Shown piece after piece: positions 1 to 63,678 of a stretch of 64,000 nt of DNA. Every line of letters begins with the position of its first letter. The stretch's first letter is position 1. The notes below the pieces were generated by a model. That model was not told the origin of the DNA and did not search any database. It worked only from the letters and a program-made list of their open reading frames with translations. The DNA lies in IMG/VR virus record IMGVR_UViG_3300012949_000001; one strand, written 5' to 3'. The DNA is from a virus. The position numbers and the translations under genes are program-made.

Positions 1-3000
1 CTATATCATAATAATTGCTAAGCACTTCTTTTGTATTAGCACTTTGTAAACTGGCATATATCTTATCATCAACAAGTATAGAGCTCTTAGCCACCTCTGC
101 AAATTTGCCAGACTTAATTGACATCTCTAGTTCATCACCAAGAGTTCTTTGAGCTTCGCTTTCATAGTATCTGTTTTCAGAAACAGCTCTTGAAAGCATG
201 TATAATCTTGTTCTGCTATGAACGTCATCATATGTTCCTCCCTTTCTTATTGCAGAAAGGTAAGTATCTTTATTCTTATTCATTATTGCATGGGCCATAA
301 TTGTGTCGCCATCGAAGTCCAGGTTAAATGCTTTCTGAGAAGCAGAAAGTGCAATTGCTGCATTACCTGTAAGCTGGTTATCAAGAATACCCCATACAGG
401 AACTGCAGAACCTTCCCTAATCATAGGGAAACGGCCTGATAATAGTATGTCACCTTGCTCTGACAGAAGCTTAACCATTTCATCTTTTGAGCTTACACCA
501 TATCTCTTTAATGATTCTTCTGCAAAGTAGCCCATCTTTTCAAATGCTTCTTCTGACAGTAACAGTGCATCTATATATCTTCCTTCGGCATAATGCTCAA
601 GATATGATTTGCCTTCGAACTTGGCTTCAGCAAGTGCCCTAATGCCATTAAGCCTCTTTAATTCTGCAAGTTTTTTGTCTGTTGGTAACTTAAGATACTC
701 TGATTCTGATAATCCAGCATATTCTCCACGGTGGATTGTAAAACCTGCACCTTTCAGATTTATAGACCGGTCAAGTCTGGTCTTAATCATTTCTCTTTGA
801 GTAGAATCAAGATATAACTTCTGCGAATCAACAAGTTCGTCAATAGCATCAACAACATTCTGCATATTCTCTGGAGTCTGATCATCCATCCAAGTCTGAT
901 ATCTGGATCTTAAAGCACCAAGCTTTTCAAAATAATCAGGAAGTATCAGAGAATCGCCTGTTGTTGCAAAAGGAGAACGAGGTACTGCCAAGTATCTTCT
1001 TGAACCGAACTTCTCTCCTAAGTCAAACACTGTATTATTCAAATATGGACTTGTTTCATCATACAGCTGAGCATCAAGTGTACCGCTGCCGCCTGGTGCA
1101 AAATCTGCAAAGTCCATTCGATTAAATTTAAACTTTTCACCAAGCTCATCAAGAGTTACACTTGTTCCTGCTTGGATCCTTTCATTGAATCTTAATGCTT
1201 CTGCAGTGCTTGCAGCTGTGTATGCTCTTTCTGCCCACTCTGCAGAAATGTCATCTCCTAATGTAAGTTTGCCATTCTGAGTGAAGAACTCTTTTATGTG
1301 TTTATATCTTGTATCTCTATCACTCACTGATGCCAGTTTCTTTTCTCCTGGCCTTGTAAATACCATGTTTTTATATAAGTCAGTGAAAGAGCTTAATACT
1401 GGTTGGTTAATAAATTCATCACGAAGAACTCCATTATCAGTGAACTCATTAAGAGCCTTATTGACTATTTCATCGTTTTTATCTCTTAAGTTGACTACAA
1501 ACTCATCATTTAGTACTTTTGCCCCAAGAAGGTTATGCATACGGTCTGAATATACAAAACCTCTATCCAAGAAGCCTTTTGTGGCCATTTCGTCTCTGAG
1601 TTCCTGAAGTTCTTTCCTTCTTGCTGTTAATTCCTGTTCTATATCTAGGAAATCTGCATCTGTTCTTTTTGCTTGTGCTCTTCTTTTTTCAAGTCTACGT
1701 ATTTCTTTTTGAAGAGAACTCATTGCGTTTTCTGCTTCTTCTGCATTGGTTATGCCTTTATAAGAACCACCGGTCCAGTCTATCTGTTCAGACATTTCTC
1801 CAAAGCCTGTATATACATCTATGGTCTTGTCGCCAAAACGTAACTGTGTCTTATCATATACAAGGCCTTCTTCTCCAAATAGTTCTTTTACTCCTTTTAG
1901 GCTTATATAGAAGTCCTTAAATTTGTTGCTTCCATTAATATATACAGTGCCATCACGTACCTCTGCCAAAGGCATAAGCTTCTTTACGTTTTCATCAGTA
2001 AGCATGCCCCTGTCTTTCAGTAATCCAATTGCAGAAGTAAATGCAACAGATACGTTCTCGTGCTTTGCTACATTCTGGTTTGTTATAGCAATTGCCTTAG
2101 TAGGCCCGAGAATTTGATTGAATATAAGATCGCCGACAGCATTCCATTCTCTCTCTGTCAAAGTCCTGATGTCTTCTATACCGGCTCTCTCCATTTCGTC
2201 AACAAGAGCTTCTGTATAATGCTTGCCAATATATTTTTCAAACCTTGTGCCTTTAAGCTTTCTTTCTATCTCCTTATTGAGTTCACCAAGTCTTACAGGA
2301 GAAGTATATGCTACCGACTTTTCGAGCTCACTGATTGTAATCTTGATGCCGTCTTTGTACTCATAAGGATCAACGTAATATTTATAGTCAAGATCGTACA
2401 TCTTTTTTAAGTAGCTTTTAACACTTTCAAGGTCTCTTCCTATGTTAAGAGGTAATGCTTTTTGGATTTCATCTTCTGATAATATATTGCCATATTTATC
2501 AAAGAAGCCTGCTCTTAACATACCAGAATATTTACTTGCAAACGGCTTCCTTGAATCAGAATATCCTTTTTGAGCGAATAAGATATCTCTGGCGTCTACT
2601 TCAACTCCAGAACCATATCTAAATTTACCATCCTGGAAGGAGAACACAACTTTGCTAAGCCTTTCTATTTCGCTTGCAAAATTGGCCTCTATTGCTCTGT
2701 TATCATTGATAACCTGTATCTGAGACTTGTTGAATATGTTTCTTGCTACTCTTGAATATAAGAGTGTTTGCTGCTCATATGTGCTTGTATGCAAAGCTTT
2801 TTCTTTTAACTCATTTGCTACTCTATCTATTTCTCTTTTTAAATCTTCAGAGCACAAATCATATTGCTGCTGTATTCCGAGAACAATCTTAGCCTGGATA
2901 ACGAACGGGTTTCTGTCACCTATAGGTTCTCCTGCGGCTAGATTAATAACTTCTTTTAATGTGTTAGAATCCATTGATACATATCTACCTGTAATCATAC

Positions 3001-49833: not shown

Positions 49834-49872
49834 AGAGGGCCATCTAAAACAGGTGGCCCTCTTAAAATTTGA
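49834..49872 (+). repeat. GAGGG/CCCTC hairpin element H1
   Basis: 12-bp stem AGAGGGCCATCT/AGGTGGCCCTCT, 5-nt loop, then TAAAATTTGA and RBS. Confidence 0.75.
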
Positions 49873-49889
49873 GAGGAGGTGAGAAAGAG

Positions 49890-50039
49890 ATGATAATCAT
49901 GGAAGTAACTATCCCAATCAAATCACAACCACAACAAGTACCACAGCAAAGTAAACCTAAGAAGAGACGCAAAGGAAAGAATGAAGAAGTTTTGACATTC
50001 AAGCAGTTACTGGACATGGCAATGAAAAAGTACGAATAA
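49890..50039 (+). CDS. Small basic protein, 49 aa (not in track)
   Basis: RBS GAGGAGGTG; MIIMEVTIPIKSQPQQVPQQSKPKKRRKGKNEEVLTFKQLLDMAMKKYE. Confidence 0.6.
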   Translation: MIIMEVTIPIKSQPQQVPQQSKPKKRRKGKNEEVLTFKQLLDMAMKKYE

Positions 50040-50069
50040 CATTTAAGAGAAGGAAAGGAGAAAACACGT

Positions 50070-50345
50070 ATGATTACAACAAGAACAACAAATGAACTCA
50101 AAGAGGTAGCAGCAAGAGCACTGGAGAATTACTTAGAGGAACTGTTTAATGAGGCTATGGAGACATATGACACCAACAGAGAACTGTTATTATTATCTTT
50201 CTATTTCGTAGGTTGTGAATCTATTAAGAAGGGAACTTTCATGATTGTCAACAATGAAGACCTTGCATACATAGTAGTTCCTGGCATTCCATTTGATGTG
50301 ACAAAAGATTGGAGCTTTAGAAACACAGAAAGGAGATGGTCATAA
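50070..50345 (+). CDS. Hypothetical protein, 91 aa
   Basis: RBS AAAGGAG. Confidence 0.65.
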   Translation: MITTRTTNELKEVAARALENYLEELFNEAMETYDTNRELLLLSFYFVGCESIKKGTFMIVNNEDLAYIVVPGIPFDVTKDWSFRNTERRWS

Positions 50346-50695
50346 TGTTAATAACACCGAAGGTAGAAGTAGGACGCTGCTATACATCAATAGCACTTGG
50401 CATCTTTATTGTAAAGCATATTTCAATGAATGGCATTCTTGTAACCATAATCAACAAGTATGGTGAAGAGAGAAAGCTGAGCTATCTTATGTTTGACGAG
50501 GAACAGGACAGATCATTTAAGTGCAGAGAGATTTCAAGAGATTTCTTCATCAAAGAGTATAAGAACAATAGCAAGGATTATACTCTTAGATTTCTGTATG
50601 AAGATAAACCAAGAGAAAGATTAAAGGGGGTGACTAAGTTCAGAAAGATAAGAGCTGTGTATCAAGTATGTCAGCAACAAGAATATTGCTATTAA
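50345..50695 (+). CDS. Hypothetical protein, ~116 aa
   Basis: TAATG coupling with the previous gene; track start is 50336. Confidence 0.65.
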   Translation: MLITPKVEVGRCYTSIALGIFIVKHISMNGILVTIINKYGEERKLSYLMFDEEQDRSFKCREISRDFFIKEYKNNSKDYTLRFLYEDKPRERLKGVTKFRKIRAVYQVCQQQEYCY

Positions 50696-50710
50696 TAGGA
50701 GGTGATTGTT

Positions 50711-50788
50711 GTGAAGAAGGGCGAAATTGTGACAGTGGCTGCATTGTTCGCAATTGCAGCAATTCTATTGATTCTGTCAACCAGATAA
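50711..50788 (+). CDS. Single-TM micropeptide, 25 aa (not in track)
   Basis: RBS AGGAGGTG, GTG start; MKKGEIVTVAALFAIAAILLILSTR. Confidence 0.55.
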   Translation: MKKGEIVTVAALFAIAAILLILSTR

Positions 50789-50805
50789 TACAAAGGAGAG
50801 TGCAT

Positions 50806-51009
50806 ATGAAAAAAGTACTAGCAGTTAAGAAGAGATTTGTTCAAGATGGAAAAGTGTACATACAGGATTGCATCTCTGGACAGATCGCAGTGGTTGGTAG
50901 GAGCTTTGTTGCTCCTACTATCACTGATACCACACCAAAGGGGCCATATGTTGAAATTCCAAAATTCATGATTGAAAGGAGAAAGAAAGAGTATGGACGG
51001 AATGATTGA
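50806..51009 (+). CDS. Hypothetical protein, 67 aa
   Basis: RBS AAAGGAG; 3' part of track ORF 50668..51009. Confidence 0.6.
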   Translation: MKKVLAVKKRFVQDGKVYIQDCISGQIAVVGRSFVAPTITDTTPKGPYVEIPKFMIERRKKEYGRND

Positions 51010-51433
51010 GCTCCCAAGATTCAGAACAGTAGCTCTTGGGTATAGCAAAGAAGACATTGCCAACTATCTTGATTTGATTGGCAATGAAATCTTGAGATCA
51101 AAAGAGATTATTAAGGAGAATGCATCTCTTAGAGATCAGATTGGGGTGCTGCAGCTGTATCGTGACAACTATGAAGAACAGAAAGATTTAATAGCTCAAG
51201 CACTTATTGATGCTCGTGAAGCAGCTACGAATATTATCAAAGAAGCAGAAGATATTGCTGCAAAGATAGTACGCGAAGCTGAATCGAGGGCAAAAGAAAT
51301 CCTCACAAAGGCAAAAGAAGAAGCTAATATTACAATCAACGCTGCCAATGCTGCAGTTGCAAGAAAGGAGGAAGAGTTCAATAAGATACAAGGCAAGATT
51401 GAAGAACTTAGAAACATGCTAAATAAAGCATAA
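50993..51433 (+). CDS. DivIVA/GpsB-like coiled-coil protein
   Basis: PRFRTVALGYSKEDIANYLD followed by a long coiled coil with AIIxEAExxA-type repeats. Confidence 0.75.
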   Translation: MDGMIELPRFRTVALGYSKEDIANYLDLIGNEILRSKEIIKENASLRDQIGVLQLYRDNYEEQKDLIAQALIDAREAATNIIKEAEDIAAKIVREAESRAKEILTKAKEEANITINAANAAVARKEEEFNKIQGKIEELRNMLNKA

Positions 51434-51442
51434 CACATAATA

Positions 51443-51479
51443 AGTCTAGGAGGGCTCATATGCTGGGCCCTCTTAGACT
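51443..51479 (+). repeat. Hairpin element H2
   Basis: 16-bp stem AGTCTAGGAGGGCTCA/TGGGCCCTCTTAGACT with 2 G-T pairs, 5-nt loop. Confidence 0.75.
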
Positions 51480-51625
51480 AAAAGGAGGAATTATTGATGA
51501 TGTTAAGAGGAGCTTAGAGAAATACAATGATGAATATTTTATTTGCGAAATAGGCTTGACAGAGGAAGGATACAAAAACCTGTTGAATGAGTTAACAAAT
51601 AAAAATAATGTCAAGGAGGAAGGCT

Positions 51626-52261
51626 ATGTCAACCATAAATGATGTACTAACAATACTTCGCAACTACAATGATGAACCTGAAGAAATGGAACGTATACTT
51701 ATGTGCCTATCAAAAGAAGAGCAAGCAAAACTTAAGGATTTAAGAATTACGCTCGTAGATCAGATTGATTGCCCTAATAAATGTGATATTTTAATTGATT
51801 TTTACGAGATGCTAAAAATCACATCCGAAACACCTGAAACAAAAATAGATAAACCCAAATTAAATGACTGGAAAATCTATCTCTGGGGCAAAGCATATAG
51901 AAATTGCAAACCTCTAGTTAAATGGTGCAGACAAGCTATTAAAGATGGCAAATTACCTAAAAGAGTTGATGAAAACGGGTGGCTATATCTATATGTCAAT
52001 GACTTGCTCCCATATAAAGGTCATGTATTAGATGGTATTAATGCGGGTAGCATAGATTTATTTACGGTTATTAACGATGATGTTATTTCTGGCATAGAAA
52101 TTAAAATGCTAATAAAACAGATAATAAATGATGGCATGCCAAATATTAACCCATCATATTTGCCAGAATTAAAAGCAGGTCGCCTGGGATATGTAGCAGC
52201 ATATAATAAAGGCACTGAAAAATATCTACAAGCTGTTGGTTTAGGCAAATGGCTTAATTAG
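51626..52261 (+). CDS. Hypothetical protein, ~211 aa
   Basis: RBS GGAGG before ATG 51626 (track start 51608). Confidence 0.65.
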   Translation: MSTINDVLTILRNYNDEPEEMERILMCLSKEEQAKLKDLRITLVDQIDCPNKCDILIDFYEMLKITSETPETKIDKPKLNDWKIYLWGKAYRNCKPLVKWCRQAIKDGKLPKRVDENGWLYLYVNDLLPYKGHVLDGINAGSIDLFTVINDDVISGIEIKMLIKQIINDGMPNINPSYLPELKAGRLGYVAAYNKGTEKYLQAVGLGKWLN

Positions 52262-52279
52262 CCAGATAAACAAAATTAA

Positions 52280-52558
52280 GCAGGGATTAGCAATAAACTG
52301 CTTGGCAGAAGAGTTCAGATGCATAGTAACTGGGATAACATAAGACTGCAAATCATGTATCATGTTTTAAAGGCTAAGTTTACTCAGCATCCTGACTTAT
52401 TAAAGAAACTAAAGCAAATCAATGAACCAATTATAGAGGAGAATCATTGGAACGATACTTACTGGGGAACATGCAATGGAGTAGGCCATAACTATTTAGG
52501 AAGGTTTTTAACGAGAATAAAGAACGAATTGGAGGTCAATGATGATAAGAATAGTTAA
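52280..52558 (+). pseudogene. C-terminal half of a NADAR (YbiA-like) protein, N-terminus missing
   Basis: LLGRRVQMHSNWDNIRL...AKFTQHPDL...IIEENHWNDTYWG...GHNYLGRFL; in-frame TAA at 52277; weak RBS. Confidence 0.65.
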
Positions 52559-52856
52559 TATGAGAAATCACACCTATAGGCTATATGAGGTGCTCATTCG
52601 AGTAGACAGAACCACAACAGTAGGTAATCCGTTTCGTATGTACACTGAAGAGCAACGTGATGAAGTATGCGATAAGTATGAGAGTTATTTTTATCGCAGG
52701 CTTCAAAAGGATAAGAAGTTTAGGGATTATGTTGAGTACATAGTCGACACGGCCAGGAAGCATGATGTGGCATTAGGATGTTGGTGTTATCCAAAACGTT
52801 GCCATGCAGAAACAATTAAACGATATGTTGAAGAACGACTAAGAGGGGACCATTAA
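52539..52856 (+). CDS. DUF4326-like protein
   Basis: VDRTTTVGNPF...R.EVCDKY...LGCWCYPKRCHAETI. Confidence 0.75.
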   Translation: MMIRIVNMRNHTYRLYEVLIRVDRTTTVGNPFRMYTEEQRDEVCDKYESYFYRRLQKDKKFRDYVEYIVDTARKHDVALGCWCYPKRCHAETIKRYVEERLRGDH

Positions 52857-52877
52857 GGTTCCCTCTTAAAATTTGAA
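52841..52877 (+). repeat. Hairpin element H3
   Basis: 11-bp stem AAGAGGGGACC/GGTTCCCTCTT, 5-nt loop, then AAAATTTGA and RBS. Confidence 0.75.
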
Positions 52878-52938
52878 AGGAGGTGATGCAACCATCTTGC
52901 TATTAGCAAATCAATCTATTAAGAAGGGAGGTGCTGAT

Positions 52939-53361
52939 ATGGGTAAGAAGCTTATTAAGTCATGTATGCTGTGCATACTGCTTGCTTTAATAGCTATCAT
53001 GGTGAACATTGTTTTACCATCGTTGACTATTAGAGTGGCAGACTTAGTAACCTTTGCTGCCATTGTTTTTGTGATAGTGATAGTCATAAGGATGATTCCT
53101 GTCATAAAGCAGATGTGGCAAGATTACTGCGACCGCACAGATAAGGCTACCATGCGAGCCATGTTAGGAGTAAAGATGGCTATGGATTATGGCATAGACA
53201 TCAATGCTCCTATCGAGCGTGGTAATCCTTTAAAGCTTCTTATTAATGACGTCAACTGGCCGAAGAAATTCAACCAGTACAAGTATCAATTTGGCGTCAT
53301 GCCCAAAGGCGAAGATGAGTCAGAGGTAGACATCTATGCTCTGATGCATCAAGAAGTATAA
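52939..53361 (+). CDS. Two-TM membrane protein, 140 aa
   Basis: RBS GGGAGGTG; two hydrophobic N-terminal helices. Confidence 0.65.
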   Translation: MGKKLIKSCMLCILLALIAIMVNIVLPSLTIRVADLVTFAAIVFVIVIVIRMIPVIKQMWQDYCDRTDKATMRAMLGVKMAMDYGIDINAPIERGNPLKLLINDVNWPKKFNQYKYQFGVMPKGEDESEVDIYALMHQEV

Positions 53362-53528
53362 CCATACATAGAAAGGAGGTGATTATCAAAAAACGGTGGT
53401 ATCACAATCAATACTGGAGGCTGGAGGGCGGAGGTGTCCACGACGTACTGCTGATGGACGTTGGAGGAGAGTAGGCAGTAGATCGGCTATTTTTACAATA
53501 TCACTAGTTGAAAAAGGAGGAGATTCCG

Positions 53529-53639
53529 ATGACATGCAGTGCTTTACTAGTTCTTGGGGTACACATGATGTACTCACACAATTTGCAAATGATGGGTTTT
53601 CGGCAATACTATCGAAAGGTGGTGTTGCTGGGGATCTAA
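53529..53639 (+). CDS. Possible 36-aa peptide
   Basis: RBS AAGGAGG; MTCSALLVLGVHMMYSHNLQMMGFRQYYRKVVLLGI. Confidence 0.35.
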   Translation: MTCSALLVLGVHMMYSHNLQMMGFRQYYRKVVLLGI

Positions 53640-53683
53640 CCGTCACAAAAGAAAGGGCAGCCTACCCTACCTATGATAAGGGT

Positions 53684-53830
53684 TTTCCCTGGGATCGAGA
53701 GGAGGTGATGCCAGGGGAAGCAGCGTAACCGTTGACCTCTCGCCGGAGACCTTCCAGGTGCAGAATCTGGAATTCGTCTGCCAATGAGTGATTGTCTCGG
53801 GATAATGACGGGGCGAGTGCCAGATTGATG
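53684..53830 (+). ncRNA. Candidate structured RNA/leader upstream of the polymerase gene
   Basis: GC-richer than flanks; helices 53684-92/53711-19, alternative 53696-702/53736-42, 53764-70/53820-26 and 53791-806. Confidence 0.35.
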
Positions 53831-53865
53831 AGAGAGGGGTGTCAAATCCCTCTTTTAAAATTTGA
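53831..53865 (+). repeat. Hairpin element H4
   Basis: AGAGAGGGGT/ATCCCTCTTT, 5-nt loop, then AAAATTTGA. Confidence 0.7.
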
Positions 53866-54003
53866 AACGTGTTAGCCTAGCATAGCACGTTAAATCAAAA
53901 GAAAGGAGGATTAATAAGTCAAGACAAAACCATGACTGATATATCCATCAGTCTGTCATGGTGCTAGGAACAAGGTGGATAAAAAATTTGAAAGGAGATA
54001 ATT

Positions 54004-56052
54004 ATGAAAATGCACATCTTCAACAAAATGGACAAGGAACAAGAGGTAAAGATAATATTCAGAGGTCATGAGTTTTCCATGGCTCTGAAGGATCTACTTG
54101 ACAGAGTAGATGCAAATGGTGTTGGTAATATTTTAGGAACCAATGCTTTGTATTTCATTGACAACATCAAGTCAATGAATCCGCTGACAATTGAAATCGT
54201 GTCAGCAGAAACAGAAATGAATACAATCACATCAGCTTCTATTGCAGACAGAATCATGCCTATAGTTCAGAAACGTGGTCGTGGTTTGTCTCACATCCAC
54301 ATTGAACTTGGTATAGTACAAGTAGATGATAAAACCTATTTGAACAACAGGGTAGGTTTTATGAAGGTCCCTGAGAATTTGGCTTCAAGATTAGGAGTGT
54401 TCGACATCGAAGATTCTGTTGTGTTCCGTCATGGCAAAGACTTTGTACGGATTAACTCGACAGATAAATACCCTGCAACATTACAGATTATATCTGTACA
54501 CTATGCAGGGGATGAAGAACAAGGCAAATATGCTATTGAGAATGGCATATTCATGAAGCCTGATAAGAATGGCAACTATAAGTTCTATATCAAACAAGGT
54601 GATAAGTTATACGACTTAGAATCTGGTGAAGTAGTATTTGAAGGGAATGGCTTAATAAAGTATGTGCCATTTCCGTCATCAGCATCCAGTGAGAGAAGGA
54701 AATCGCTCTATTTCATAGATGCTTCCACAGAGGAGAGAAAGAGAAGAGCAGATGAAATTCTGGATTTGGTGACAAGCGGGGCTTATAGCATCGACTATGG
54801 CAAAGAAATGCAGTATGCCAAGTTTGCTAAACTGGCTGGTAGATGGACTCAGTTCCAAGCTCCTTCTGTTAGCCTTGGCTCTGTAGGAAGATATGCCCTA
54901 TTTGATGGGGTAATAAATGAGAACCGCTTGGATGGAATGATGTATGGTTCTGCAACATTTGTTGCAGATGCCATATTAAAGATGAAAGGATACAGGATTC
55001 ATCCAGATGCATTAAACGGTATATTCATGCAGATAAGACCTACTTTGATTAAGGCAGGTATGATTATCACAAAGGATGAGTATATCGAAAATCTGATTTA
55101 CACCCTGGATCCTAATCCGATTGTATTCCGTTATGAAGATGTAACTGAAGAGATTATCAATAACATTCGTAACGGACAATATCGTAACAGGATCATCATC
55201 ATTGGTGATCCTGAAGAACCTATAGCATATGTTGCTGACAGGAATGCACTGAAGTCAGATTATGATTTCAGAATCGTTCCTGAGTTTACTGTACTCAGAT
55301 TCTTAAAGAGTACAGATTCTAATTTTAGCAGCACCATATTCCAGAAGTGCGTTGCTAAAGATGCCAATAAAGCTATTAATCTTGCAAAGAGACTGTTTGT
55401 AGAGTTCTCTGCAGAAAGACTTAATAGCATGTTGGAGCCTAAAGCAAGAGTACTGTCTCCTGATAAGTTTGAAGGAGCATTCTATATGGATGAAATCCTG
55501 GAGAATGTATTCCCGAAATACGTCATGATGGACAGTAATTTTGCAATCAACAAATTAGACAACGTTACTAAGTCAATCAATAAGGCACTGGATAGATTTA
55601 AGGTGCCGATGAATGGTAAGAATGCTGGTCTCACAGTAGGTCTTGAAGTAGCATTTGGACTTAAGAGCTTTCTTGGGGACCATGAAGTATATTGCCATTC
55701 TCTTGAAAGGATGCTTAAGAAAGAAGAACGTCCTGAGGAGAAATGGAAGGTATTCATGATTAAATATCCTTCAATGGATATTGATGAATATCAAGTTGCA
55801 AGACTTGTTTCTACTTCAGAGCTGAAGAAGAGAATCAAGGCATCTGGACTTAGTAAAGACATGCAAAACATGTTCATTGATTACTATTGCAGTCTGCATG
55901 ACTCAGTTATAGTAGTACCTGCTTGTGAAGTATTCAAGAACATGTTGGCTGGTTCTGATTTCGATACTGACCAGGTTTGCTGCAGTATTGATGAAGAACT
56001 TGTTGAGTTACTTGAAAATGAACCTGTTGCTATCGTTTGCAGAGAGGAGTAG
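54004..56052 (+). CDS. RdRP-family (YonO/QDE-1-like) two-barrel RNA polymerase, catalytic part
   Basis: Ordered motifs KLAGRWTQF, LDGMMYGS, FMQIRPTLIKAG, LGDHEVYC, IKYPSMDIDEY and LAGSDFDTDQV. Confidence 0.85.
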   Translation: MKMHIFNKMDKEQEVKIIFRGHEFSMALKDLLDRVDANGVGNILGTNALYFIDNIKSMNPLTIEIVSAETEMNTITSASIADRIMPIVQKRGRGLSHIHIELGIVQVDDKTYLNNRVGFMKVPENLASRLGVFDIEDSVVFRHGKDFVRINSTDKYPATLQIISVHYAGDEEQGKYAIENGIFMKPDKNGNYKFYIKQGDKLYDLESGEVVFEGNGLIKYVPFPSSASSERRKSLYFIDASTEERKRRADEILDLVTSGAYSIDYGKEMQYAKFAKLAGRWTQFQAPSVSLGSVGRYALFDGVINENRLDGMMYGSATFVADAILKMKGYRIHPDALNGIFMQIRPTLIKAGMIITKDEYIENLIYTLDPNPIVFRYEDVTEEIINNIRNGQYRNRIIIIGDPEEPIAYVADRNALKSDYDFRIVPEFTVLRFLKSTDSNFSSTIFQKCVAKDANKAINLAKRLFVEFSAERLNSMLEPKARVLSPDKFEGAFYMDEILENVFPKYVMMDSNFAINKLDNVTKSINKALDRFKVPMNGKNAGLTVGLEVAFGLKSFLGDHEVYCHSLERMLKKEERPEEKWKVFMIKYPSMDIDEYQVARLVSTSELKKRIKASGLSKDMQNMFIDYYCSLHDSVIVVPACEVFKNMLAGSDFDTDQVCCSIDEELVELLENEPVAIVCREE

Positions 56053-56058
56053 TCAATC

Positions 56059-57726
56059 ATGGCTACTTCTCTTTTTATATCATCAAAAAAAATAACAGAA
56101 AGGGAGATTAATGAAATGGTTACTTTAAAGGGCGTTAATGAGGAACTGTATAAGGTATCTTATGAGAGCATTGGTTTAATGACTCTTAAGAAGATGGAAG
56201 GCATCAAGTATAGCATAGGCCAGATTTCAAACTGGGTTACTAAGTGGATAATGGTTAGTCCAGAAGAAATCAGAAAGGCTTTACGTGCTGATGGTTACAG
56301 AGAAGGCCGCAACAAGCACTATATCGGTCTGGTTGGCAAGCACAGCAATGAGATTGAAGAGTTCAAAGATGAGATTACTAAAGCTATCATCTTTGAGGTG
56401 AACTTTGCTCTTGATAAAGCTTGTCACAAAGAAATACAAACTTGCATCTGGTCTGATGAGAACATTAACAAATTCAGACTAGATATGATTAAAATTGGTC
56501 GTCTTTATCAAGAAAAGACGATCGATTATGCTAAGAAACTCTGCAAGTTAGATATCATCAATTCTCCAATGAGACACATTCAACTGTTAAGCATTGCTCC
56601 TATGAATGTGGCATTAGGAGAGGACAGGATAATCATTACACCTCCAATTGAAGACGAGAACAAGATTGTAGTAAATGATATTATCAATCAGGTTCGTCTC
56701 GATTTGGTTAATGAGTATAAGGAGTTTGTTGATGAGAAGCTGCTTCCTGCTATTAAATCAGCAAGACTTCCTAAAGATATGGCTGCAGAATTAGAGAGAC
56801 GTCGTTATGGCGACGTTGAAGCATTCGTAGCCATGAAGGAATATTACAAAGATATCTCTGGAGGATACATCAGAGTTTCTGATGATGTTGAGAGCGGAGA
56901 AGATGAAGAGACTTCATTATCCGTTGTTAAAGAACAGTTCAAGGAAGACAAGGCTCGTATTGAGAACATGATTCGTCTTGCAACACAATATATGAGCCCT
57001 GAAGAAAGAGGAGCATATATGAAGTATATTGCTGGACGCACAAAGAACAATCAGAAAAGAACTGATGGTTCTGAGAATAGGTTCTATCAGGCTCTTTGCC
57101 GTGAAGAGTTCCTGAGGTGGCTTATCAGTCTTGGCCTGAACGAAATAGACTTTGCTGGATACAAACTCTTAAACAATAAGGGTTATGTAGACGGTGATAT
57201 GGTCTGGTTCGAGAATGGGCAGGCTGCAAAGGCAATCATTGATGGAACCTATACAGGTTGGCTTACTATCAGAGAATACAATAATAAACTGTATGCTACA
57301 GTTGATATTAAGGACCTGATAGTTGTGCCTGAACCTAACAACAAAATCATAATCAAAGTACAACAGGGCTTTGTTTCAAAGCATGGTGCTGATAAGATTA
57401 TAAGAGCTATTAATACAAGCCGCAATGTAGTTATCAAGTCTGGAGGCAAAGATGGTTTCGTAATGGACATCATCAATGCCGAAGGTAAGAAGTGCTCAAT
57501 ACCTTATGATCTTAGACCTGTATTCTTCAAGATGTTTAAGGATTTAACAGGTAAGATCGTTAAGGTATCAAAGAATACTGTAAGAACACAGGCAGGTATG
57601 CTTGTTGATTCAGTGTATATTAGCATTGATCTTGATACTGTACCTGAAGGTCCTGAAGTAACTCCTATTAAGTTGCCTGAGGCCTTGACACTTGACGATA
57701 TAGTTGAGACAGATGAAATCATGTAA
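56059..57726 (+). CDS. C-terminal part of split RdRP-family polymerase
   Basis: SIGQISNW and LYQEKTIDYAKK match the post-catalytic RdRP motifs (lG.isn; aVD.aK); own RBS AGAGGAG, 6 nt after the upstream stop. Confidence 0.7.
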   Translation: MATSLFISSKKITEREINEMVTLKGVNEELYKVSYESIGLMTLKKMEGIKYSIGQISNWVTKWIMVSPEEIRKALRADGYREGRNKHYIGLVGKHSNEIEEFKDEITKAIIFEVNFALDKACHKEIQTCIWSDENINKFRLDMIKIGRLYQEKTIDYAKKLCKLDIINSPMRHIQLLSIAPMNVALGEDRIIITPPIEDENKIVVNDIINQVRLDLVNEYKEFVDEKLLPAIKSARLPKDMAAELERRRYGDVEAFVAMKEYYKDISGGYIRVSDDVESGEDEETSLSVVKEQFKEDKARIENMIRLATQYMSPEERGAYMKYIAGRTKNNQKRTDGSENRFYQALCREEFLRWLISLGLNEIDFAGYKLLNNKGYVDGDMVWFENGQAAKAIIDGTYTGWLTIREYNNKLYATVDIKDLIVVPEPNNKIIIKVQQGFVSKHGADKIIRAINTSRNVVIKSGGKDGFVMDIINAEGKKCSIPYDLRPVFFKMFKDLTGKIVKVSKNTVRTQAGMLVDSVYISIDLDTVPEGPEVTPIKLPEALTLDDIVETDEIM

Positions 57727-57735
57727 CAAACAAAT

Positions 57736-57764
57736 AAGGGCTGCCTGGATAACAGGTGGCCCTT
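57736..57764 (+). repeat. Hairpin element H5
   Basis: 12-bp stem AAGGGCTGCCTG/CAGGTGGCCCTT, loop GATAA; shares CAGGTGGCCCT with H1. Confidence 0.75.
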
Positions 57765-57790
57765 TCTTTACAACAGAAAGGAGATAAAAA

Positions 57791-58099
57791 ATGAATAGTA
57801 CAAATAAAACAATGAGCTTGGTGCTTAACCAGTTTGTTCTAAACAGTCTGTTAGCAGACAAAGAAGTAAAAGAAATAGTATTCAAACACATTGATAAGGA
57901 CTTTTGCAGCGACTACTTTGCAAAAGTGACGTTTGCGTCAGATGAACAGGTTGTTCTGTTATTTGACTTTAAGAATAATGCCTGGATAGATGCTAATGAG
58001 ATATTCTTCCCTAAAGGTAAGACACATGAATGCCCATTCCATCCAGGTACTATCTGCAGACATACTTGTGATGAATGCTGGTTTAATAAAACACTATAG
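57791..58099 (+). CDS. Hypothetical protein with C-terminal Cys/His cluster
   Basis: CPFHPGTICRHTCDECW; RBS AAAGGAG. Confidence 0.7.
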   Translation: MNSTNKTMSLVLNQFVLNSLLADKEVKEIVFKHIDKDFCSDYFAKVTFASDEQVVLLFDFKNNAWIDANEIFFPKGKTHECPFHPGTICRHTCDECWFNKTL

Positions 58100-58110
58100 G
58101 AGGGATAAGT

Positions 58111-59289
58111 ATGCTAATAACAGTAAACGGCATCGAGAAAGAAGTTAATGTCATAAAGAAAGGTAATGTATGGGTCTGTAGAGTAGGCGAAGCGATAGCA
58201 TACTGGAATGCGAAGTATCAGATGCCATATGTAATATGTAAAGGTAAAACACTACAAGAGATTAATGAAATGAAACCAGTCATTGTTGCTTATCTGCGTG
58301 AATATAAGAGACTGGTTACATTAGAAAAGAAACCTTCTCCCTTATCATTTGAGGGAGAAGGAATAACTGACTCTGAATATAGAGAACAGAAGTCAGAGAA
58401 GAAAGAAGAGCATTATGTGTCTGGTGTTCCTCAATGGTTGCGTGAAGTAAAGATTAAACAGCTGTGCTCAGGACCCAAAAGAACATTTTATAGAGGCATC
58501 AGAATACCACAGGAATATAAAGACATGGCTAAAAAGTATATTCCATTTTGCTGCAACTGTGTTCACAGAGTTAATTGTGACACGCCTTGTTTATTACCAG
58601 AAGTAAAATCACAAGAAACATTATTAGAAGGTATTGAAAAGGAGGAAATGAATATGTCAAAGTTTTATGGAGTAAAGGTAGGAAGAACAGTAGGAGTTTA
58701 TACAACATGGGCAGATTGTGAGGCTCAGGTAAAAGGTTTTTCAGAAGCACAATACAAAGGCTTTAACACAAGAGAAGAAGCAGAAGAATATGTAGGAATC
58801 AAGAATCAAGCAACAACATCCAGTGAGACACAATCAAACACTAACAGCAAACTTGTTACTATCTATACTGATGGTGCATGCTCAGGAAACCCTGGCCCTG
58901 GAGGTTGGGGCTGCATTCTGATGTATAAGGAGCACTACAGAGAATACTCTGGTTATGTTCCTGATACAACCAATAACCAGATGGAATTATTAGCAGCTAT
59001 TAAGGCATTAGAACAACTCAAGTTCCCTTGCACCGTGGATTTGTATAGCGACAGCAAGTATCTTGTTAACGGTATGAATCAGTGGTTGACAAACTGGAAA
59101 CGTAACAACTGGAGAACAACATTGGGAGCAGTAAAGAATAAAGAATTATGGGAAAGACTTGATGAACTTAACAGCATTCATACTATCAGATGGCATTACG
59201 TTCAAGGTCATGCGTCTAATCAGTATAACAATCGCTGCGACCAATTAGCCACTGGTGCAATAAAGAACAAAGGACCTGTTGCACAATGA
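58111..59289 (+). CDS. rnhA: Ribonuclease HI with hybrid-binding domain and ~180-aa N-terminal extension
   Basis: FYGVKVGR..GVYTTWADC..QVKGF (HBD); IYTDGACSGNPGPGGWG, TNNQMELLA, LYSDSKY, VQGH and NNRCDQLA. Confidence 0.92.
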   Translation: MLITVNGIEKEVNVIKKGNVWVCRVGEAIAYWNAKYQMPYVICKGKTLQEINEMKPVIVAYLREYKRLVTLEKKPSPLSFEGEGITDSEYREQKSEKKEEHYVSGVPQWLREVKIKQLCSGPKRTFYRGIRIPQEYKDMAKKYIPFCCNCVHRVNCDTPCLLPEVKSQETLLEGIEKEEMNMSKFYGVKVGRTVGVYTTWADCEAQVKGFSEAQYKGFNTREEAEEYVGIKNQATTSSETQSNTNSKLVTIYTDGACSGNPGPGGWGCILMYKEHYREYSGYVPDTTNNQMELLAAIKALEQLKFPCTVDLYSDSKYLVNGMNQWLTNWKRNNWRTTLGAVKNKELWERLDELNSIHTIRWHYVQGHASNQYNNRCDQLATGAIKNKGPVAQ

Positions 59290-59293
59290 TTGT

Positions 59294-59329
59294 ATATGAG
59301 AGGGCTCTAATTATAGGGCCCTCTTATAT
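59294..59329 (+). repeat. Hairpin element H6
   Basis: 16-bp stem ATATGAGAGGGCTCTA/TAGGGCCCTCTTATAT with G-T pairs. Confidence 0.75.
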
Positions 59330-59394
59330 TTTGAGAAAGGAGCGTGATGTTATGTTTCATCTGTCTTTTTAATAATGCTCGTATGTATCCACGT

Positions 59395-59760
59395 AACGGT
59401 ACGGCCCCTTCGGGGCGTAGTGAAAAAGGTTCCTTCGGAACTACAGTCATGTTTTCCCTCACACGATATGTTTGAGGTTAAAAGTTCGTCAAAAGGCGAG
59501 CGAGCCCTTCGGGCTATCCCACACACCCTTTGGATAAAAACCAACCGTGAGGGAGACGGGTGCCAGCCTGCTCCCTCACACATCTCCCTTGCATACCCAC
59601 TCATATCATAATTTTACTCTTCCTCTATTATTAACTATTCAATAATAGGGGAAGAGGAAATAAATAGTGACGAGGGTGAACAATCTATAAGTTATTTAGA
59701 TTATGCCCTCACACGCTATTAATGAAGGCTGTCTAAGTTATTGTACGGCCTTATAAAATT
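59395..59760. ncRNA. Structured non-coding region (ncRNA or origin candidate)
   Basis: Three C-TTC-G hairpins, three CCCTCACAC copies, a 9-bp and a 16-bp helix; no convincing ORF. Confidence 0.4.
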
Positions 59761-59777
59761 TAAGCAAGGAGGATATT

Positions 59778-60182
59778 ATGGCCAGCAAACGTATCGCAAT
59801 AGTTTTTAATCATCCTGTCATAGTCAGAATAGATGATGTATTCGACAGAACCAAATCAATCAAGGTATATGACAGGGCGTATGATGACACATTAGACCCC
59901 ATAGGTTACTACAGCTACCATAAGGCGATAACAGAAGTATTGAAAGAAATCGTCAATGCCAATAAGGAAGACATGATATATGGCATCTATGTTGATTTTG
60001 ACACATTGAACAGGGGGTCATATACAGAAGAAATCGCTAAGAAAGAGTTAGAATGTATACTAACAATGCGTGAGTATGAGAGATATCGTAAGCTTACGCA
60101 CTTTAACACAGCGTTTCTTAGCATTAGTTCATGTAACAATTATGAACAGTTAAAGAATATAATACAGGCCCTCACACAATAA
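59778..60182 (+). CDS. Hypothetical protein, possibly degenerate RNase H fold
   Basis: RBS AAGGAGG; YHKAITEVLKEI...IYVDFDTLNRG weakly parallels the RNase H core. Confidence 0.55.
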   Translation: MASKRIAIVFNHPVIVRIDDVFDRTKSIKVYDRAYDDTLDPIGYYSYHKAITEVLKEIVNANKEDMIYGIYVDFDTLNRGSYTEEIAKKELECILTMREYERYRKLTHFNTAFLSISSCNNYEQLKNIIQALTQ

Positions 60183-60318
60183 CTTTGAGGAAGTAACACG
60201 CATATAGAGAGCACGATGTTGCGACCTGTAAGCGTGATACTTTTATAGAAAACAAATATTTCAGGAGGCGTCCGAAGAGAATACGCGACCCCGTTCTGGG
60301 GATAGGAAAGGAGCAAAA

Positions 60319-60855
60319 ATGGCTAGAAATGTAATTATTGTTGGACGTGGAAATTCTATTAGCAGACTGATTTATGATCCCGCTACACAGAAGGCATCCG
60401 CAACAGACTACACTGGACTGGTGAACACTGAAATTAAGGGTAGCACCAGAATCAACTGCTTGAGCGTACTGGTAAGGACTCTCCAGCAGTTGTCCGAGAA
60501 GGAAGGCTTCTTGGAGGAGACAACACCGACTGTTGTATATACTGTTGGCATGGTTGCAGACACAATCAATAACGGCACATTCAAGCATTGGTTGCTTGGA
60601 GAAGGCAAGAAGCTGAACGGTGAAGCAGTAAATGAAAGCGAACTGGAGCTTTGGCAGGAGTTCTCAAGACTTTATACAGAGCTGTTCTCTCACATCATCA
60701 TCAAGAACGTTGCCGACATACGTATTCCTAAGAACCCCAGATATGCTATTTCTATGGAACAGAGAATACTCAATGATTTTGTTGAGAAGGCCTGGGATAG
60801 AATCAAGGTTACGGCTCCAGAGATCGAAGAGAGCGACGACGAAGCGTTCAACTAA
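60319..60855 (+). CDS. Probable catalytically inactive RNase H-fold protein
   Basis: STRINCLSVLVRTLQQL...VVYTVG...INNG...HWLLGEGKKLNGEAVNESELELWQEF parallels RNase HI helices but lacks the acidic triad. Confidence 0.55.
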   Translation: MARNVIIVGRGNSISRLIYDPATQKASATDYTGLVNTEIKGSTRINCLSVLVRTLQQLSEKEGFLEETTPTVVYTVGMVADTINNGTFKHWLLGEGKKLNGEAVNESELELWQEFSRLYTELFSHIIIKNVADIRIPKNPRYAISMEQRILNDFVEKAWDRIKVTAPEIEESDDEAFN

Positions 60856-60865
60856 CAGGAAAAAT

Positions 60866-60888
60866 CGTTCCCCTATACTGGGGGAACG
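60866..60888 (+). terminator. GC-rich hairpin after 60319..60855
   Basis: CGTTCCCC/GGGGAACG stem; no long T-tract. Confidence 0.45.
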
Positions 60889-60949
60889 TTGGTCGCAGAA
60901 CGGTTGAAAAGTCGATACCGTGTCGTCATGCATACGATGTTGCGAATCG
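60889..60949 (+). repeat. Structured repeat motif, copy R1
   Basis: TTGGTCGCAGAACGGTTGAAAAGTCGATACCGTGTC...TGTTGCGAATCG. Confidence 0.85.
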
Positions 60950-61305
60950 CTTTACTCATATTTCACCAGACGAAGTATGAGGACATATCAGGTCTGGCGT
61001 TGGCATCCCTAACCAGCATAGGGTGTCGCGAAAATACAAAGCTGGTAGCCGTGTTTTTCATTTGTTTGGCGGCGGAAAATCAGAATAACAAGTGCAGGGT
61101 ACCCACTCTGAAAACTGGGTAGAGAATGGGTGCGGACATTCTCCCTACGTCCCGCACGATGTAGGAATATTCGGTATATATGCAAAGGTCCCGGCCGGAG
61201 CATGGTTGCCTCTTGTTCATAGGAACAACAGGTATATATATTGTCATGAGTATATGCGTAAAAAACCTGTTCCCAAATGACATTCCGGTCTTTGAGGGCA
61301 GGTTT

Positions 61306-61373
61306 TTGGCCACAGAACGGTTGAAAAATCGAAACCGTGTCATAGTATGTCCAGGCTATGATGTTGTGGATCG
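61306..61373 (+). repeat. Structured repeat motif, copy R2
   Basis: TTGGCCACAGAACGGTTGAAAAATCGAAACCGTGTC...TGTTGTGGATCG. Confidence 0.85.
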
Positions 61374-61641
61374 TCGTCTTATAGGCTGTCGTGTCCTGAC
61401 TACCAGACTATAAGAACAGAGACTTCCTTTCTTATAACGAAGTGTCAGGTAGGAGACCCATCCTATGCTATAGACATTATAGCAGAATGGTAGAGAGTAG
61501 GATGTGGCTACTCTCCCTGCAACCACATCAAGCGGGCATGTATTTGGAATATGTATTTGGAGAAAAGCTGAAAAGCCCACGCCGCTAGGAGAAAACTCGG
61601 CCTTGGGGAAAGAGAGAAATGAGGACCGAAGGCGACGTGGG

Positions 61642-61700
61642 TTGGTCTCAGAACGGTTGAAAAGTCCATACCGTGCTAATCAGATTAGTGTTGAGAATGG
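61642..61700 (+). repeat. Structured repeat motif, copy R3
   Basis: TTGGTCTCAGAACGGTTGAAAAGTCCATACCGTGCT...TGTTGAGAATGG. Confidence 0.85.
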
Positions 61701-61726
61701 CAAATACGCACAAGGAGGCATAACAT

Positions 61727-62002
61727 ATGAACACCAGTAACACAGTAAGGCTTTCAGGGACACATGATTTTGGCCCGTTATATAAGTTTAAGCCAGACAT
61801 AGGTTTACTTATAATACTGCCGCCAAACTGTATGAGGAAAGCCTGTACTAAAGGACGTATTAAAAAGAGTATAGTAGCAAAGTTGAGAGACCTGACTCTG
61901 GAGAACATGCTTGATCTCAATGAAAAGCATGGTGTAACTTTCGAGGCAGTGAACAAGACTTTGGTACTAGAGAAATTAAGAATGGGAGGAACACTGTCAT
62001 GA
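61727..62002 (+). CDS. Hypothetical protein, 91 aa
   Basis: RBS AAGGAGG. Confidence 0.65.
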   Translation: MNTSNTVRLSGTHDFGPLYKFKPDIGLLIILPPNCMRKACTKGRIKKSIVAKLRDLTLENMLDLNEKHGVTFEAVNKTLVLEKLRMGGTLS

Positions 62003-62280
62003 AGGTAAGAGGTAAAATAGTTCTGAAAGGTTCTAAGGTTATTCTATCAGACGTCGAATTAGACTGCCAGAATATCGAACTTGAATATGAAGCAAGTTAT
62101 TCAGTCAAAGAACTGGCTGATGTGTTTGATTTATTGCCAAAGGCAGTGGATAAAGTATGTGAAGCAGGAACGAAACTCATAACAGGACAAAACAATATTG
62201 TATCATTAGAAGATATTGTGAATGAATTGATAAAGTATGAGGCGGAGACAGCTTCAACAGAAGAAGACACAGAAGAGTAA
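61999..62280 (+). CDS. Hypothetical protein, 93 aa
   Basis: RBS GGGAGG; ATGA overlap with the previous gene. Confidence 0.65.
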   Translation: MKVRGKIVLKGSKVILSDVELDCQNIELEYEASYSVKELADVFDLLPKAVDKVCEAGTKLITGQNNIVSLEDIVNELIKYEAETASTEEDTEE

Positions 62281-62298
62281 CTGATAGGAGGCATACCT

Positions 62299-62796
62299 AT
62301 GGCACCAACAAAAGAGATAGACGTATTCGTAGACGGCAGCTGTACAGGCAATGGCCAGCCTGGTGCCGAAGGAGGTTGGGCATTCTTTGCGACACTGCCT
62401 AACTCAATAGATATAATAAATGGGTCAATCCATATAGGCAAACTCAGGATAGGCAAGCAAACAAATAACAGAGCCGAACTTGAATCAGTCTATCAAGGTT
62501 TACTATGGATAGACGCACAACCGAATGATGGAACAAGATATACTATATGGAGTGATTCAGAAGTAGCTGTTAATGGTATAAATGGTTCCTCTGGAAGAAA
62601 TGCGAATAGAGACATATGGGAAGACATCGAACCACTATGTAGAAAACTCGTAAGAGAAAAGAAACTTGCAGGAGTAAATTATATTGAAGGTCATAAGAAA
62701 AACAGCACAGAGCCCCGTCACATAAATAATTGTGCATGTGATAAATTGGCTAAGCAAGGAACCAATAGTTTATTATTAGAACCATATCAACCATAA
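62299..62796 (+). CDS. Second ribonuclease H (RNase HI family)
   Basis: VFVDGSCTGNG, TNNRAELESV, IWSDSEVAVNG, IEGH and NCACDKLAK; catalytic D/E/D/D present. Confidence 0.88.
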   Translation: MAPTKEIDVFVDGSCTGNGQPGAEGGWAFFATLPNSIDIINGSIHIGKLRIGKQTNNRAELESVYQGLLWIDAQPNDGTRYTIWSDSEVAVNGINGSSGRNANRDIWEDIEPLCRKLVREKKLAGVNYIEGHKKNSTEPRHINNCACDKLAKQGTNSLLLEPYQP

Positions 62797-62812
62797 GAAA
62801 GGAGTTACGTAA

Positions 62813-63631
62813 ATGGCTAAACCTACAGTAAATAATGACACTGTAATAGTATTCGGTGGCAAGACATATAATGTTGAACAATTTGCCAACGAATTTTCAG
62901 CTGGTAATACAGATATAGCTATTCTCACAATGGAGAAATTGTTGGAGACAGGTAGAGCTCATCTGTTTAACGAAGTCAAATCAAGACAAATTAAAGCACT
63001 GGAGAAGACATTTACAGAACAGCAAATCAAAGAAGCCGCAGCAGAACATGAATATTTCGAAGAAGCAGGAAAAGACTTCAGAGCCGAAGAGAAAAGAGAA
63101 GGAAGACTCACATATGAACTTGTTGAGTTTGATTTCCCTTATATGTTGAAGGCTCAGGAGTTTGAACGTTACGTTAAAGAAGACCTCAGGATAAAAGATA
63201 CAGAAATATCTGTACGTAACGGTCAATGTGTCCTGAAGGTTTATAATGTAACTGATTCAGAAATCAATGTAATGAGTAGAGCCTATAAGGCAGATAAGAT
63301 TACCCAGACTGCCGTAGGAGCTGTAGATAACACTGTCAAGAAAGCAACAGACGCTGTTCATTATGGAGCAACTAAGATTGTAGCTCCTATAGCAAAAGCA
63401 GGAGCAAAAGCAAGTGCAAGTATTCTGAAGACAGTGTTGACCACCGCAGCAAAGACAGCAGGTGGTTTTGTATCAGCGACCACTCAGGGAATCAAGAGTG
63501 CCGCAACCGAAATCAAAAATGATCCTGATGTATTAAAAGGAACAAGAGATGTCCTTGAAGCTGGTGACGCTATCAGACGTAAAATCAAGTTTGAGCATCC
63601 TGGCGGTAAAGGCATTCGTGTTTACCAGTAG
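62813..63631 (+). CDS. Hypothetical protein, 272 aa, Ala/Thr-rich C-terminus
   Basis: RBS AAAGGAG. Confidence 0.7.
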   Translation: MAKPTVNNDTVIVFGGKTYNVEQFANEFSAGNTDIAILTMEKLLETGRAHLFNEVKSRQIKALEKTFTEQQIKEAAAEHEYFEEAGKDFRAEEKREGRLTYELVEFDFPYMLKAQEFERYVKEDLRIKDTEISVRNGQCVLKVYNVTDSEINVMSRAYKADKITQTAVGAVDNTVKKATDAVHYGATKIVAPIAKAGAKASASILKTVLTTAAKTAGGFVSATTQGIKSAATEIKNDPDVLKGTRDVLEAGDAIRRKIKFEHPGGKGIRVYQ

Positions 63632-63633
63632 GT

Positions 63634-63678
63634 TAAGAATGTGATGAGGGGGAAGATAATTCTCCCTCACACTTCTTA
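63634..63678 (+). repeat. Hairpin element H7
   Basis: TGAGGGGGAA/TTCTCCCTCA core with GATAA loop, extended by a bulged outer stem. Confidence 0.65.

Follow-up and report, generated by a model that had tools for sequence, protein, structure and literature searches.

What are the three similar sequences that lie one after another in a long intergenic region of a tailed phage, and what do they do there? The DNA analysed was one stretch of 64,000 nucleotides from the IMG/VR virus record IMGVR_UViG_3300012949_000001, hereafter the window. The original prediction was that the three sequences are copies of a conserved three-way-junction RNA, which could not be assigned to a known family. To investigate this, we examined the repeats themselves, searched for the same element in other phages, and analysed its fold, strand and surroundings. 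The repeats are copies of an RNA domain of about 90–130 nt that is not catalogued in Rfam 15. Its fold is well supported, whereas its function can be proposed only tentatively.

Three repeats in one intergenic region

The region 60856-61726 is an 870-nt gap without convincing genes, located between a 178-aa ORF and a 91-aa ORF on the + strand arm of the phage. A repeat search of the window returned three 35-nt copies at 60888, 61305 and 61641 with 86–100% identity, and the 35-36-nt core was placed at 60888/9-60922, 61305/6-61339 and 61641/2-61675 on the + strand. A degenerate 27-nt pattern matched exactly these three sites in 64 kb, against 0.00 expected from 100 shuffles. The helices of the original prediction were all present. 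P1 is TCGCA/TGCGA, CCACA/TGTGG and TCTCA/TGAGA in the three copies, P2 is ACGGT/ACCGT, and the three P3 hairpins read exactly as described. The features of the locus, including those identified in the analyses below, are as follows, where M denotes the RNA domain and S a noncoding unit between two copies of M.

60319..60855 (+): upstream gene (178 aa), with a predicted RNase HI fold and no conserved acidic residue.
60860..60949 (+): motif copy 1 (M1). A-tract 60860-60865; P0 60866-60888; UUGG 60889-60892; P1 60893-60897 with 60941-60945; P2 60900-60904 with 60917-60921; 12-nt loop L2 60905-60916; P3 60922-60938; pseudoknot 60913-60916 (CGAU) with 60946-60949 (AUCG).
60950..61259 (+): noncoding unit S1 between M1 and M2, which appears to be a chain of H-type pseudoknots, including module PK-B at 61122-61157.
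61260..61373 (+): motif copy 2 (M2). A-tract 61260-61265; P0 61266-61302, extended by A-U pairs; UUGG 61306-61309; P1 61310-61314 with 61365-61369; P2 61317-61321 with 61334-61338; P3 61339-61362; pseudoknot 61330-61333 (CGAA, 3 of 4 pairs) with 61370-61373 (AUCG).
61374..61570 (+): noncoding unit S2 between M2 and M3, with PK-B at 61493-61529.
61571..61700 (+): motif copy 3 (M3). A-tract 61571-61575; long-range P0 61576-61641; UUGG 61642-61645; P1 61646-61650 with 61692-61696; P2 61653-61657 with 61670-61674; P3 61675-61689; pseudoknot 61666-61669 (CCAU) with 61697-61700 (AUGG).
61701..61729 (+): A/U-rich 12-nt linker, Shine-Dalgarno (SD) sequence AGGAGG (61713-61718) and the ATG (61727) of the downstream ORF.
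61727..62002 (+): small ORF (91 aa), whose ribosome-binding site follows the last motif copy.

Thermodynamics alone would not have found the motif. The MFE z-scores of the isolated copies were +0.6, -1.6 and -0.3, and the MFE fold recovered the junction only for copy 2. A lack of unusual stability by MFE is usual for small pseudoknotted motifs.

Occurrence in other phages and folding of the element

To obtain related sequences, DNA and protein searches were performed. Distant blastn of 60300-62300 against the phage GenBank collection gave no match, and protein-anchored searches of IMG/VR with the 178-aa and 392-aa neighbours found nothing. The 555-aa protein encoded 3 kb upstream, on the other hand, has a small set of homologues in JGI, ENA and Logan assemblies, and a second set was obtained with the 178-aa protein. 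The contigs carrying them (designated by L numbers) are syntenic, in the order RdRP-like polymerase, RNase H1, 176-184-aa protein, gap, small ORF, RNase H and a protein of about 272 aa. A covariance model built from the three window copies, which scored 90.9, 80.0 and 80.2 bits for copies 1, 2 and 3, found the motif in every related contig that covers the gap. One to three copies were present, always on the gene strand, at 36–81 bits. L017 ends 136 nt after the 184-aa gene and shows none. A more distant relative, L013, a 9.7-kb contig binned into a Lachnospiraceae MAG, has one copy further downstream in the same gene cluster. By the run records, the habitat is bioreactor, anaerobic digester, manure and sludge.

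Pattern scans of IMG/VR DNA found only one further copy, in L019, an unrelated and more G+C-rich 37-kb phage contig, plus a chance hairpin in L020. L019 shares no BLASTP-detectable protein with the window in the 11 kb compared. A metagenome pattern scan, which was too strict, returned only a chance hit inside a flavoprotein gene (L001), and a pattern scan of 185,579 GTDB representative genomes gave only L013 and one chance hit inside an ORF (L014). None of 150 other Lachnospiraceae genomes has the motif. In total, 18 full copies were obtained from 12 contig lineages: the window, ten related lineages, nine of them with the motif at the same syntenic spot, and L019. Nothing else in the 64-kb window or in these contigs matched. 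The related copies are not phylogenetically independent, and near-duplicate contigs (L004/L005/L006 and L007/L008) were counted once for each set. DNA contigs from four sequencing runs showed no structural variants and no SNPs inside the motif copies, although their assemblies break at the repeats.

On the 18-copy alignment, 99.4% of pair cells form standard pairs, and 12 of 18 pairs show double-sided changes. All five P1 pairs and all four P3 pairs change on both sides, with up to five pair types at a single position, and two P2 pairs also covary. None of 500 shuffles reached the observed covariation score or percentage of cells paired (3 of the 5 summary measures were at 0/500 on every alignment), and sliding the partners by 1–3 columns decreased the pairing to 27–43%. 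This alignment was fitted to the model, which favours the structure. However, RNAalifold predicted the same junction on its own. These results support the original prediction of a conserved three-way junction. The alternative GAAA-type hairpin, which had also been suggested for the P2 loop, is not what the covariation supports, because a compensatory U-A to G-C change in L002 (position 13970) keeps P2 and spoils that hairpin.

The three-way junction was correct but incomplete. The conserved trailing ATSG is not a loose tail, because the last four bases of the P2 loop pair with the four bases that immediately follow the 3′ strand of P1. This pseudoknot is of the CCAU:AUGG type in 12 copies and of the CGAU:AUCG type in 6. 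Its middle pair is never mismatched, and the G-C form occurs in at least three separate lineages, including L018 and L019. In addition, the G after P2 and the first T of TGT form a conserved G·U pair at the base of P3, which was detected in 16 of 17 copies. Each copy also begins about 30–70 nt further upstream than had been described. A helix of 6–16 or more bp with no conserved sequence, designated P0, ends 0–3 nt before the invariant UUGG in every copy. In copy 1, P0 is a 10-bp stem, which was matched by 0 of 300 shuffles. Three to six A residues plus one further base stand directly 5′ of P0 in 16 of 18 copies. AAAN therefore faces UUGG across the base of P0, which we read as A·G, A·G, A-U and N·U. 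In copy 2, the A-tract is longer and pairs with extra U residues. P1 and P2 are exactly 5 bp in all copies, while P0 and P3 vary from 2 bp to more than 70 nt. P1′ runs into the pseudoknot strand, and the other pseudoknot strand into P2′, with no linker. The simplest geometry is therefore two side-by-side coaxial stacks, P0/P1 and pseudoknot/P2, tied at one end by the P3 junction, although this arrangement is an inference.

The RNA is read on the + strand. The + strand folded better than its complement in 13 of 13 copies, and the P0 helices hold 41 G·U pairs on the + strand against 17 on the minus strand. P0 itself folded better on the + strand in 10 of 13 copies. The conserved G·U pair at the base of P3 would be a C·A mismatch on the other strand.

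Genomic context and layout

The layouts of the syntenic contigs, in which X stands as an unlabelled segment, are as follows.

Window: gene-M-S-M-S-M-ORF.
L004 and L015: gene-M-S-M-ORF.
L009: gene-M-S-M, then 265 nt (the small gene is lost).
L002: gene-X-M-S-M-ORF.
L011: gene-X-M-S-(A-tract + hairpin)-ORF.
L007 and L010: gene-M-ORF.
L018: gene-M, then 107 nt, then ORF.
L016: gene-M-S-(P3-less M)-HNH ORF-(truncated M)-ORF.

The layout is M-S-M(-S-M)-ORF in six lineages and M-ORF in two. Where an ORF follows directly, as in the window, the pseudoknot ends 10–14 nt before the SD sequence. The same spacing was seen in L004, L015, L007, L010 and L002, and before an unrelated HNH ORF in L016. In L011, L013, L018 and L009, however, the last copy lies 100–420 nt from the next ORF.

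The S units are noncoding. Gene callers placed no gene in the corresponding gaps of the related contigs, apart from one minus-strand call in L009 (5230-5628) that overlaps both motif copies. The S units share architecture rather than sequence. Module PK-B begins with UAG, followed by a 5-9-bp stem whose whole 6-7-nt loop pairs with a segment 6–11 nt downstream, and it recurs with unrelated helix sequences in seven S units of six lineages, two of these units being in the window. S units also hold more pseudoknot-like arrangements than shuffles do (5 in S1, against a shuffle mean of 1.8), although this is a modest test.

The 178-aa neighbour is predicted to have an RNase HI fold (AlphaFold pLDDT 85.8; Foldseek hits to RNase HI at probability 1.0, TM 0.45–0.55), and its 8-sequence alignment has no invariant D or E. 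It is probably not the partner of the motif. Two bona fide RNase H genes flank the locus, and the Atlas places the 682-aa protein among phage RdRP/YonO-like polymerases at a score of 0.96. The 91-aa ORF belongs to a conserved family of unknown function, with no Pfam, PHROG or Atlas assignment. In L019, no RNase H, 178-aa family member, small-ORF family member or RdRP-like gene was detected in the whole contig, which is about 80% complete. The absence of the RdRP-like gene is weak evidence, because the Pfam control gave no signal in any control genome.

Possible functions and comparison with known RNAs

To gain information on the identity of M, it was compared with known RNAs. None of the 4227 covariance models of Rfam 15 matched in the whole window or in ten related loci totalling 116 kb, among which L019 was not included. 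At E<=10 on 60700-61900, the only hit was a chance 16-bit ATPC match on the minus strand, inside S2. ARAGORN found no tRNA or tmRNA in the window. M resembles the small self-cleaving ribozymes of phages and bacteria (hammerhead, twister, twister-sister, pistol, hatchet and HDV-like) in its size, in a multi-helix junction locked by a pseudoknot, in highly conserved junction and loop nucleotides with free-sequence peripheral helices, and in the intergenic position of several nearby copies. However, its junction strands (GA, none and GU) lack the hammerhead CUGANGA/GAAA/UH core, and its helix order (P1, P2 with the pseudoknot strand in its loop, P3, P1′, pseudoknot strand) is not that of the HDV nested double pseudoknot. 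With pseudoknotted riboswitch aptamers, such as the SAM-II/preQ1-II type or the THF type, it shares a compact invariant core and a loop that pairs with the 3′ tail next to a ribosome-binding site, but there is no coherent downstream gene function and no SD sequestration. The 5′ stabilisers of Firmicute and phage mRNAs, of which the phage SP82 element is probably an example, likewise stand close to the SD at the 5′ edge of a cistron in polycistronic transcripts, but appear to be simple hairpins or SD-like tracts, whereas M is a knotted multi-helix fold. The phi29 pRNA is also built on a three-way junction and encoded at a single locus, but its Rfam model did not match, and M is multi-copy with ORFs directly downstream. 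ToxI-like type III antitoxin repeats and CRISPR-like arrays are also direct repeats with variable copy number. The repeats here are 417 and 336 nt apart and separated by conserved structured RNA, not tight tandems of 34–45 nt, and no ToxN-type hit or Cas gene was found among the neighbours with Pfam and PHROGs, without a PADLOC analysis. Literature searches found no description of the motif, although a direct comparison with a large catalogue of candidate viral structured RNAs built from IMG/VR (PMC10690425) was not possible; our pattern scans found M only once in IMG/VR, so a comparative screen of that collection could hardly have found it.

The reading that fits best, which we hold only tentatively, is that M is a cis-acting punctuation or leader module inside a polycistronic early/middle transcript. 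One copy stands at the 5′ boundary of each downstream unit, which is either a pseudoknot-rich noncoding RNA or an ORF. Because the cargo can be noncoding, the primary role is unlikely to be purely translational. Because S is bracketed by M on both sides, and S-less genomes keep exactly one M between two genes, a punctuation role fits best. We propose that the transcript is cut at or just upstream of M, either by M itself or by a conserved host RNase that recognises the fold, although without RNA data neither transcription nor cleavage has been observed. The upstream product would end in hairpin P0, and the downstream product would start with a compact knot that shields its 5′ end and sits at the 5′ edge of the ribosome footprint. 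The layout fits a 3′-terminal element of the upstream unit equally well, and a plain hairpin would be enough for 5′ protection, so the elaborate conserved core suggests something more specific. Within this proposal, M as a new class of self-cleaving ribozyme, which would release the S RNAs and give the downstream mRNA a protected 5′ end, is possible but unlikely. The junction nucleotides match no known ribozyme core, and most newly found conserved motifs tested in the past were probably not ribozymes.

Other explanations appear less likely than the punctuation or leader role. A sensor-type regulator, that is, a riboswitch-like aptamer or the operator for a conserved host protein, in which binding would stabilise or dissolve the pseudoknot and so tune translation or read-through, is the strongest of them, though still improbable. 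It is supported by the compact core of about 60 nt with about 30 invariant nucleotides, by the spacing from the SD, and by a competing hairpin (GGUU-GAAAA-AUCC) that can be drawn in most copies. However, this hairpin is weak in the six CGAU-type copies and is broken by the compensatory change in L002, and no expression platform is evident. No conserved segment can pair with the SD, because P1 covaries freely, and no terminator follows. Internal copies precede noncoding RNA, and the downstream units (a small unknown ORF, an HNH ORF, S RNAs and an unrelated 165-aa ORF) differ, with no metabolic assignment. A replication element, in which M plus S would act as pre-primers or R-loop formers processed by the adjacent RNases H, as with the ColE1 RNA II primer, is doubtful. 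Within 4.7 kb of the locus lie two RNase H genes, one of them carrying a hybrid-binding domain, and the predicted RNase H-fold protein. In addition, the relative L007 has a PIF1 helicase fused to a hybrid-binding domain, and the element occurs at only one locus per genome. Conversely, L019 carries M with no detectable RNase H, M also precedes ORFs at ribosome-binding distance, the number of S units ranges from 0 to 2 among close relatives, so S is dispensable, and the GC skew, profiled only inside the window, shows no switch at the locus.

It is still less likely that M and/or S are trans-acting decoys against a host defence, such as a pseudo-antitoxin or another mimic that soaks up a host nuclease. 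The copy number varies among relatives, the element occurs in unrelated phages, A-rich tracts flank the fold, and phages may expand RNA antitoxin mimics, but the scans of GTDB representative and Lachnospiraceae genomes found no host-encoded counterpart, and the repeats are not tight tandems. Mimicry of a conserved host RNA is unlikely because the pattern is essentially absent from the representative genomes. A recognition element or template for the RdRP-like (YonO-family) polymerase, by analogy with the pseudoknot domain plus tRNA-like structure at plant-virus 3′ ends, is improbable as well. Such a polymerase is encoded 3 kb upstream and in all relatives of the clade, and S is a chain of pseudoknots followed by a compact junction domain. 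However, M is confined to one locus, whereas a polymerase needs signals genome-wide, and L019 has M without a detected RdRP-like gene, with the weakness noted above and in the absence of data on the template preference of the enzyme. A signal at the DNA level (iterons, recombination sites, or the A-tract plus P0 as minus-strand intrinsic terminators) is the least likely. P0 plus the A-tract of copy 1, read on the minus strand, is the best terminator-like site in the 17-kb arm scanned, but the G·U pairs are conserved and enriched on the + strand, and covarying helices and a pseudoknot are not expected of protein-bound iterons.

The fold and the family are new, with no relative among the Rfam 15 families. 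About 30 core nucleotides stay invariant even in L019, which has the full element but in which the neighbouring proteins were not found, as far as its roughly 80%-complete contig shows. This weakens roles that need the RNase H or RdRP-like proteins, and the partner is probably the RNA itself, a small molecule or a universal host machine. Candidates of this quality have in the past turned out to be new ribozyme or riboswitch classes. The element also flags a second new RNA, the pseudoknot chain S, and both sit in a barely sampled phage clade that carries a eukaryotic-type RdRP-like polymerase and three RNase H-fold genes, one of them by prediction. Even in the plainest outcome, a portable module that defines and protects RNA ends in phages of anaerobic Firmicutes would give a compact RNA part for engineering, and would explain how these phages express noncoding RNAs from polycistronic transcripts.

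Noncoding RNA units and hairpins around the motif locus

The spacers between the motif copies were compared between the window and the related phage contigs (designated L with a number), and they are themselves a conserved noncoding RNA, designated S. The units are located as follows.

Window 60950-61259, S unit
Window 61374-61570, S unit
L004 6515-6765, S unit
L015 5659-5950, S unit
L009 5343-5560, S unit
L002 14095-14560, S unit
L011 10495-10880, S unit

An H-type pseudoknot module, consisting of UAG, a 5-9-bp stem and a loop fully paired with a segment 6-11 nt downstream, was shared in 7 units of 6 lineages, with unrelated helix sequences. A second module (CCCUA..CCAGC..UAGGG...GCUGG) is shared by the window, L004 and L015. 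Further large noncoding blocks lie upstream of the 176-178-aa gene in this phage and its relatives, at window 59290-59777 and 60183-60318, L007 13587-14356 and L010 6725-8095. In L013, a contig of a distant relative, an 830-nt gap upstream of the motif (505-1335, minus strand) is strongly structured (MFE z = -5.1), and it may contain a small ORF on the opposite strand.

The original prediction also noted G-rich-first hairpins (GAGGG...CCCTC) followed by TAAAATTTGA and an SD in the + strand intergenic regions of the window (49834-63678). These hairpins are oriented opposite to P0, the helix preceding the motif core, which is C-rich first and preceded by an A-tract, and they are a separate element class.

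A repeated 9-mer on the + strand

The 9-mer CCCTCACAC occurs 5 times against 0.15 expected, at window 59456, 59573, 59706, 60169 and 63664. All copies are on the + strand, within 4.2 kb around the locus, and often at or after intergenic hairpins. The 9-mer also occurs in L017 after the 184-aa gene. It appears to resemble the core of the T3-type promoter, and it may be a promoter or terminator signal of this phage.

Proteins encoded near the motif

The RdRP/YonO-like polymerase is split into two adjacent genes in the window (54004-57726) and in most of the other related contigs (L002, L004, L007, L010, L011 and L015). On the other hand, it is a single gene of 1187-1304 aa in L016 (1-3121), L017 (73-3636) and L018 (1-2447). 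In L007 (12118-13587; = L008 12347-13816), a PIF1-family helicase carries an N-terminal RNase H1-type hybrid-binding domain (Cauli_VI), and it occupies the position held in the window by the RNase H1 gene.

In L016, an HNH-type endonuclease ORF (6163-6615) sits within the region 6089-6685, between a P3-less motif variant, which ends 23 nt before its start codon, and a 5'-truncated motif copy that follows its stop codon. This arrangement looks like a mobile-gene insertion into the motif locus.

The 178-aa protein encoded upstream of the motif (window 60319-60855) was subjected to structure prediction and a Foldseek search, and the predicted structure has an RNase HI fold (pLDDT 85.8, Foldseek probability 1.0). 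However, no invariant acidic residue was found across 8 homologues, and the protein is probably a catalytically dead RNase H-like nucleic-acid binder.
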